Below, in pieces: positions 8,092 to 8,935 of a stretch of DNA of 23,430 bases. Source of the stretch: Chiloscyllium plagiosum (taxonomy: Eukaryota); contig NC_057719.1 in the NCBI RefSeq assembly GCF_004010195.1, positions 44,371,054 through 44,394,483 on the forward strand, in the 5' to 3' direction. The notes under the pieces were generated by a model that saw only the letters and a list, made by a program, of their open reading frames with translations, was not told where the DNA came from and made no database searches. Both the position numbers and the translations under genes were made by a program. Numbering within the stretch: the first letter of the stretch is position 1; each line of letters begins with the position of its first letter.

Positions 8092-8108
8092 CTGAAAACA
8101 AGAATTTA

Positions 8109-8405
8109 GATTAGATTACTTACAATGTGGAAACAGGCCCTTCGGCCCAACAAGTCCACACCAACCCGCCAAAGCGCAACCCACCCCCCTACATTTACCC
8201 CTTCACCTACCACTATGGGCAACTTAGCGTGGCCAATCCACCTAACCTGCACATTTTTGGATTGTGGGAGGAAACCGGAGCACACCCACGCAGACATTGG
8301 GAGAATGTGCAAACTCCACACAGTGAGTCGCCTGAGGCGGGAAATGAACCTGGGTCTCTGGCGCTGTGAGGCAGCAGTGCTAACCACTGTGCCACCATGC
8401 CGCCC
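8109..8405 (-). mobile_element. tRNA-derived V-SINE (HE1-like), relatively young
   Basis: Minus strand GGGCGGCATGGTGGCACAGTGGTTAGCACTGCTGCCTCACAGC (A box), GGTTCATTTCC (B box), V-domain TGTGTGGAGTTTGCACATTCTCCC, tail GTAAGTAATCTAATC. Flanking ATTTA at 8104-8108 and 8406-8410 is a candidate TSD. Confidence 0.93.
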
Positions 8406-8935
8406 ATTTAACAAGTCAGAAATACACTAACATCTGATTAATACACATCATTAGAGACACAATAGCAGGCTTTAAAACTAATGACTGACAACCTCGGAAA
8501 GTATATGGTAATTATCATCCTCATATAGCATAATACAGTATATTTTTAAAACATTACCATAGGTTGAAGTTGCATGGAGAACTGTGCCTTTCAAGGTAAC
8601 TTTTTTTAGACATGGACACCCTTTTGTTCCATCTGTGGTTACTGTCAATAATCTATTTGGGATTTGTCAGTAATATGGCTAGAATTAAATCAAAGAGACT
8701 GAATATGCACTTTGCAAGGTTTTAAAAAAAGAGGAAAACAATGGGCCCACATTTCGCTACACAAATAAATGGAATTATTTCTACATATTAGTTTGAACAT
8801 AGTCAACAATCAAGTGCAATTCTCCAAGCACTTGCTTTACCTAGTTACCAGAGACCAAGCCAAGAATAAAATCAGGGGAATGCATGCAAATTGTTGAAAA
8901 TCATTAAACAGTACAATTATGAGTTCCACACTGAC

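Follow-up and report, generated by a model that had tools for sequence, protein, structure and literature searches.

A sense-oriented SINE 17 nucleotides upstream of a TRIM9 acceptor in Chiloscyllium plagiosum and candidate branch points in its repeat tail

We identified a tRNA-headed SINE lying in sense orientation immediately upstream of the acceptor of a coding exon of TRIM9, a gene encoded on the minus strand of the analysed stretch of Chiloscyllium plagiosum DNA (the window, 23,430 nucleotides). Only 17 host bases remain between the element and the exon, so the usual branch zone (-18 to -40, counted upstream from the exon) is wholly SINE-derived. The anatomy of the locus is clear, and on a model of the empty site a CTGAC motif that is likely to have been the original branch motif has lost its canonical position. 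The ancestral AG is probably still in use, with branching chiefly at A 8111 of the SINE tail and neighbouring adenosines as redundant backups. It is a weaker suggestion that the tail is also the reason why the insertion persisted. Alternatives are weighed below where the evidence bears on them; they overlap, and their probabilities do not sum to one. The features are listed in Table 1.

Table 1. Features of the TRIM9 locus and of the SINE (window coordinates; strand relative to the window)
Feature	Position	Strand	Remarks
TRIM9 coiled-coil exon	8936..9046	-	37 codons, ends FLQ, upstream of the intron
Intron	8092..8935	-	844 nt, GT..AG, phase 0
TRIM9 exon downstream of the intron	7938..8091	-	154 nt, 51 codons at 8091-7939
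Host pyrimidine tract and acceptor AG	8092..8103	-	not disrupted by the SINE
CTGAC, likely original branch motif	8415..8419	-	A 8416
TAAAT, 5' copy of putative target-site duplication	8406..8410	-	
TAAAT, 3' copy of putative target-site duplication	8104..8108	-	
tRNA-headed SINE	8109..8405	-	297 nt, 56% GC, sense to TRIM9, V-SINE/HE1-like
Pol III A box	8384..8394	-	pattern match
Pol III B box	8340..8350	-	relaxed pattern
First AG after displaced CTGAC	8387..8388	-	30 nt away, weak cryptic acceptor
3' terminal stem-loop of the SINE	8124..8162	-	directly before the tail
Repeat tail and junction	8105..8123	-	four URA adenosines
CTAAT, best candidate replacement branch motif	8110..8114	-	A 8111, -20
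GTAAGT, donor-like hexamer	8118..8123	-	7/9 consensus matches, 31 nt before the acceptor
Second SINE copy (same lineage)	9347..9680	+	antisense to the gene, different 3' end; end approximate

The best named protein matches of the exons in the window were to TRIM9. The exon downstream of the intron was 100% identical to a TRIM9-named protein of Chiloscyllium punctatum, which bears out its assignment to this gene in a preliminary description of the DNA; we take it to be the COS region. A Pfam search with three TRIM9 exons, including this one, gave no match, and a structure search with its 51 residues returned nothing. The FN3 exon near 1126-969 matched a solved TRIM9 FN3 domain (E 2.3e-26). The coiled-coil exon showed 0 differences from chondrichthyan TRIM9 proteins in 19/19 examined (15 listed from a 27-member cluster and 4 others), and its donor agrees with the consensus at 8 of 9 positions. 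The junction GFLQ/ISDA was present in all 19 proteins, and the octapeptide upstream of the junction was identical in 101 of the 120 homologues, among those listed. All three exons were free of differences from the five TRIM9 models listed for C. punctatum and C. plagiosum (the FN3 exon over 40 residues), which places the DNA in a bamboo shark or a near relation. The normal junction was likewise kept in 5/5 listed Chiloscyllium TRIM9 models, which are annotations from assemblies in which the SINE is not confirmed. No altered exon junction occurred among the listed protein models, where decayed transcripts would be invisible. Skipping of the downstream exon would shift the reading frame because of its length of 154 nt. 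A further upstream TRIM9 exon was not found within the window. A search of sequencing runs listed 24, of which 14, from two organisms, contained 0.47-0.94 of the words; there was no RNA run among those listed, and these shares are uninformative as to whether the SINE is present.

Additional features of the gene were observed outside this intron. Two acceptors, separated by 12 nt on the minus strand (window 1127 and 1115), serve the FN3 exon; shark models include both the longer form (VPSPVPSAP) and the shorter one (VPSAP), the latter being found in fish as well. The next intron contains a strong acceptor-like site at 7159-7200 on the minus strand, with an AG at 7160-7159, a long pyrimidine tract and URA motifs at -37, -25 (CTAAT) and -20. 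An insert at this site was seen in 0/19 protein models examined; it is possibly a poison, terminal or micro-exon.

Members of the V-SINE superfamily have a central V domain of approximately 80 bp after the tRNA head. In the element described here, A and B boxes were located by pattern matching, with a relaxed pattern for the B box, and neither ARAGORN nor Rfam reported a tRNA gene. The terminal stem-loop had a core pair probability of 0.94-1.0 and a z-score of only -1.27. It is followed by a short TAATC repeat of about 2.6 units, known from one copy; such tails are presumably common in bamboo sharks. The second copy in the window is identical to the first at 226 of 279 aligned bases and has no TAATC-type tail. 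A search with the SINE head motif detected 23 metagenome loci (L001-L023) containing bony-fish-like SINEs with other 3' ends, with 0 matches in viral contigs and 0 in prokaryote genome contigs. The head and centre of the shark element (to position 122-193) were 68-72% identical to 7 of these 23 loci, which carry no annotation and are putative V-SINEs. No other copy of the 3' end was found in the prokaryote, viral or metagenome contig collections. TAATCTAA was found within 450 nt in 1/23 metagenome loci, by eye in the flanking sequence, and only 12 of the 23 reach 380 nt or more. What the metagenome loci show is limited to one point: this SINE group does not carry the tail as a general feature. 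In two metagenome assemblies, apparent bony-fish host DNA carried the same SINE head with at least two other 3' types.

An RT-bearing LINE remnant has an end (20485-20570) to which the end of the SINE could be aligned, at a score reached by 0/2000 shuffles and 1/990 window segments. Judged from this alignment, the pairing fits that of HE1 and HER1, which a table in PMC3747384 lists as the V-SINEs of sharks and rays and their partner LINE. HE1 is described as having a tRNA head, a central domain common with fish SINEs and a 3' end similar to CR1-type LINEs (PMC4824008, PMC2911107). The shark element has a tRNA head too, with a centre that resembles fish-like SINE loci and a 3' end that resembles the LINE remnant; on these described features it is provisionally likened to HE1.

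Other repeats were also present in the window. The LINE remnant (18816-20570) is antisense to TRIM9 and has a 3' end similar to that of the SINE, and related fragments lie at both window ends. A decayed LTR-type element occupies 1201-6212 within a TRIM9 intron; its ends (1201-1333 and 6079-6212) match at 78-80%, and a remnant of an integrase zinc finger lies near 3045-3275. A 327-nt piece from inside this element forms an inverted duplication (4711-5037 and 6549-6875, 95% complementary). A 32-nt satellite (11682-16178, approximately 141 copies) has a strong strand skew and runs into an assembly gap. Fragments of another interspersed repeat occur in both orientations (10452-10604, 11578-11675, 17232-17326 and 17624-17681). 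The two SINE copies are inverted relative to each other and bracket exon 9046-8936, with their heads about 940 nt apart; they could pair in the pre-mRNA, with effects on skipping, editing or circle formation.

The preliminary description had placed the end of the SINE about 17 nt upstream of the TRIM9 exon, and a check of the coordinates (SINE 8405-8109, intron 8935-8092) gave the same distance. It had also proposed that removal of the SINE and one TAAAT copy would put the A of CTGAC at -23, and that CTGAC now lies about 300 nt away. Both points agree with our analysis: the A was at -23 in the empty-site model and is at -325 at present. If the right TAAAT is treated as containing no duplicated base, the A falls at -28, and CTGAC remained between -23 and -28 across all six overlap assumptions. 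The empty site is a reconstruction obtained by deleting the SINE and one TAAAT copy. An error in this model, through a target-site deletion or later changes, would mean that CTGAC was not the original motif and that no such displacement took place. In line with that, the direct repeat is just 5 nt long (chance approximately 3.7% over 11 edge positions), its TAA continues the phase of the tail, and a second YURAY motif is present in the model at -45. We regard such an error as quite improbable, since CTGAC, the most frequent branch box of vertebrates, stays within -23 to -28 whichever overlap is assumed. On the model, CTGAC is the likely original branch motif.

A related question is whether the displaced CTGAC could still serve the acceptor of exon 8091-7938 over the increased distance, possibly because the SINE folds out of the way. 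Distant branch points do exist (PMC7969005), and CTGAC had the best crude pairing with U2. However, 17 AGs lie between this motif and the acceptor, no pyrimidine tract follows it, and distant motifs are reported to require an AG-free, U-rich stretch (PMC7969005). Because CTGAC now lies at -325 behind these AGs, such use is very unlikely.

The tail offers a different set of candidates, and the preliminary description had suggested one of them, CTAAT with its A at -20, as the replacement branch point. The motif and its position (A 8111) are as described. CTAAT is the only yUnAy at -18 to -40, and it agrees with the U2-type pattern in sequence, in the distance of its A and in lying inside the AG-free zone. 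Going upstream, the first AG is met at -28, so that both -20 and -25 fall inside this zone. Position thus favours a replacement by the tail, since CTGAC is displaced, the zone is all SINE and CTAAT is its sole yUnAy. As an account of the tail, however, the description was incomplete: three more URA adenosines (8120 at -29, 8116 at -25 and 8106 at -15, the last host- or duplication-derived) and the donor-like GTAAGT had been omitted. The adenosines at -25, -29 and -15 could compensate for the loss of CTAAT, and a single mutation of this motif would therefore be weakly informative. In a crude duplex score with U2, CTAAT reached -1.4 kcal/mol, equal to the A at -29, versus -3.4 for the displaced CTGAC. 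The predicted accessibility of the A at -20 varied with settings from 0.07 to 0.65, and the acceptor region folded no more stably than its shuffles (z 0.54); no structural conclusion was drawn. GTAAGT is predicted to be too close to serve as donor for this acceptor; the steric limit quoted in PMC7969005 is approximately 50 nt.

Published maps of human branch points provide a frame for these motifs. According to PMC4315302, the interval from -19 to -37 holds 90% of those mapped, branch points are degenerate, 32.4% of exons have more than one, and both CUAAU and CUGAC are recognised strong branch boxes. An alternative is that the tail is incidental, with branching at the host TAA (A at -15) or at degenerate sites, and with most inserts tolerated. 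The URA at -15 was present before and after the insertion, the neighbouring FN3 acceptor has no yUnAy in range, and a human screen of loci with an Alu within 100 bp of an alternative exon detected a splicing change at just 5, or 21.7% of the loci assayed (PMC6326789). Against this, -15 lies outside the zone that holds 90% of branch points, CTAAA lacks the final pyrimidine, and weaker boxes tend to lose against stronger ones (PMC4315302). On balance, we consider an incidental tail unlikely.

How surprising the tail motif is was assessed with the 17 host bases fixed, using 2000 shuffles of the SINE and 15,680 overlapping intronic 60-mers of the window. A CURAY at -18 to -40 free of a disqualifying AG was found in 2.4% of the shuffles and 9.4% of the 60-mers, a yUnAy in range in 15.1% and 37.5%, and three URAs in range in 0.15% and 3.2%, respectively. 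Some URA in range was supplied by 60% of the intronic 60-mers, which also favours an incidental tail. A poly(A) tail in place of the SINE tail scored zero, and the end of the second copy gave no yUnAy at 6/6 tested ends. When the host stretch was varied between 17 and 35 bases, the tail brought a YURAY into range in 7 of the 14 distances tried. The tail is thus better than most alternatives, yet a usable motif is not rare. Rare coincidence was rejected as an explanation of the tail motif, as the repeat unit itself yields the motif, which leaves distance as the only free variable. The reversed SINE also placed a CURAY in range: read in antisense, the A-box head contains a branch-like GCTAAC motif 22 nt from the element edge. 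Antisense copies were for this reason rejected as a clean control. The first FN3 acceptor of TRIM9 is present in most listed models, yet has no yUnAy at -18 to -40.

We propose the following sequence of events. A LINE-mobilised tRNA-SINE would have integrated 17 nt before the acceptor, at TAAAT between the branch motif and the pyrimidine tract, and would thereby have carried CTGAC from -23 out to -325, with 17 AGs between it and the acceptor and no pyrimidine tract nearby. The host tract and AG stayed intact. U2 pairing would then have moved to the SINE tail, mainly to CTAAT (A at -20), with the tail adenosines at -25 and -29 and the host A at -15 as alternatives, and the exon would still be joined at the ancestral AG. 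The tail, a stem-loop followed by short repeats, presumably serves retrotransposition, and its fit to the branch consensus would be a by-product. The weakest step is the last one, in which the tail may have made the insertion easier to tolerate. Since this is only one locus, rescue, tolerance and drift are inseparable.

Drift could account for the persistence of the SINE if the insertion were mildly harmful, through lower inclusion of the exon or a minor poison exon, and had nevertheless become fixed. Such a history is compatible with branching in the tail, but appears rather improbable to us. The poison exon would arise from the displaced CTGAC together with the SINE-head AG at 8387 and the donor-like GT at 8246. 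The AG follows the displaced A by 30 nt, donor-like sites are present at 8246 and 8123, and U1 bound to the GTAAGT of the tail may compete with U2. In addition, an inverted second SINE copy lies across the upstream exon. Elsewhere, sense HE1 copies in zebrafish are exonised within their 5' region (PMC2911107), and splicing of dog PMEL is diverted by a SINE at an acceptor (PMC7349775). However, the cryptic AG at 8387 is preceded by only 35% pyrimidines versus 70% at the true acceptor, and the listed protein models contain no altered junction, though decayed transcripts would escape them.

Survival of a SINE 17 nt from an acceptor invites explanation because full-length SINEs in mammals are depleted within 100 bp of exons, an effect that is strongest on the acceptor side (Zhang et al. 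2011, PMC3088655). Few mammalian insertions are reported to lie within 20 nt of an acceptor, and such insertions are often harmful (PMC3088655, PMC6326789). The main text of PMC3088655 does not contain the word 'branch' and so does not consider escape by way of a branch point that the element supplies.

Several known systems resemble the shark locus in part. Mercer et al. 2015 (PMC4315302) mapped 154 branch points in exonised inverted Alus. The inverted Alu consensus contains CUAAU, which serves as a branch motif where the left arm has become an exon, and CUAAU accounted for 48% of left-arm motifs. Both the inverted Alu and the shark SINE therefore carry CUAAU. However, the Alu is antisense and supplies the branch point, tract and AG of a new exon, whereas the shark SINE is in sense orientation and supplies the branch region only, via its tail, to an old coding exon that keeps the host tract and AG. 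In an OGDH intron 4a reporter (Kralovicova et al. 2021, PMC7969005), some of the branch points mapped were contributed by MIR inserts, and MIR insertions add or remove branch-point competitors in this intron; SINE consensuses are given there as having approximately one URA per 30 nt. The OGDH case also places a SINE between branch point and acceptor, but it involves engineered, mostly disruptive inserts in an intron with a distant branch point, and neither a natural fixed insertion nor a repeat tail. The merle SINE of dog PMEL similarly sits at an intron-exon boundary and lengthens the distance from branch point to AG (PMC7349775); it differs in being antisense, with its poly(T) acting as tract and a cryptic AG used, which results in mis-splicing instead of rescue. 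TE-derived branch points have also been predicted at a new exon of BLOC1S2 containing MIR and AluSp (PMC6822395) and at pseudoexons of CEP290 and GPR143 (PMC7951965). As in the shark, the TE is proposed as all or part of the branch point; these cases concern new or cryptic exons and are predictions only.

A SINE with a portable branch point, which the preliminary description had suggested for this family, is thus already published for Alu. What would be new here is the replacement of a host branch point by a sense repeat tail at an old coding exon. In the literature searched, with subscription journals mostly outside it, we found no case in which the repeat tail of a sense element took over the branch-point role at an old coding exon, no report on shark SINEs and branch points, and no TAATC tail or Chiloscyllium SINE consensus.

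A broader possibility is that the SINE belongs to an abundant shark subfamily with branch signals at both ends (CTAAT in the tail in sense, GCTAAC in the head in antisense), whose copies would be self-repairing when inserted between a branch point and an acceptor and would escape, genome-wide, the depletion near acceptors to which other SINEs are subject; we consider this doubtful, if worth entertaining. Any enrichment of the family near acceptors could instead reflect integration bias, with the tail pairing with TAA targets that are common in branch zones. TAA is common to tail and target at the 3' junction of the shark SINE, and overlaps of one to several bases occur at the 3' junctions of CR1, L2 and RTE elements (PMC6007223). 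On the other hand, an overlap of 3 nt provides little specificity in AT-rich introns, and we think such a bias improbable. Genome-wide enrichment, if seen, would nevertheless need a control for pairing between tail and target at integration (PMC6007223).

As a single locus, the shark TRIM9 SINE is a curiosity, since SINE-borne branch points have already been mapped in human. If the tail rescues splicing, the locus represents a natural branch-point swap at a conserved exon, in which filled and empty alleles can be compared, and the tail repeat unit of a SINE helps decide where its intronic copies survive. If, in addition, the family is self-repairing, many conserved exons would be dependent on SINE-derived branch points.
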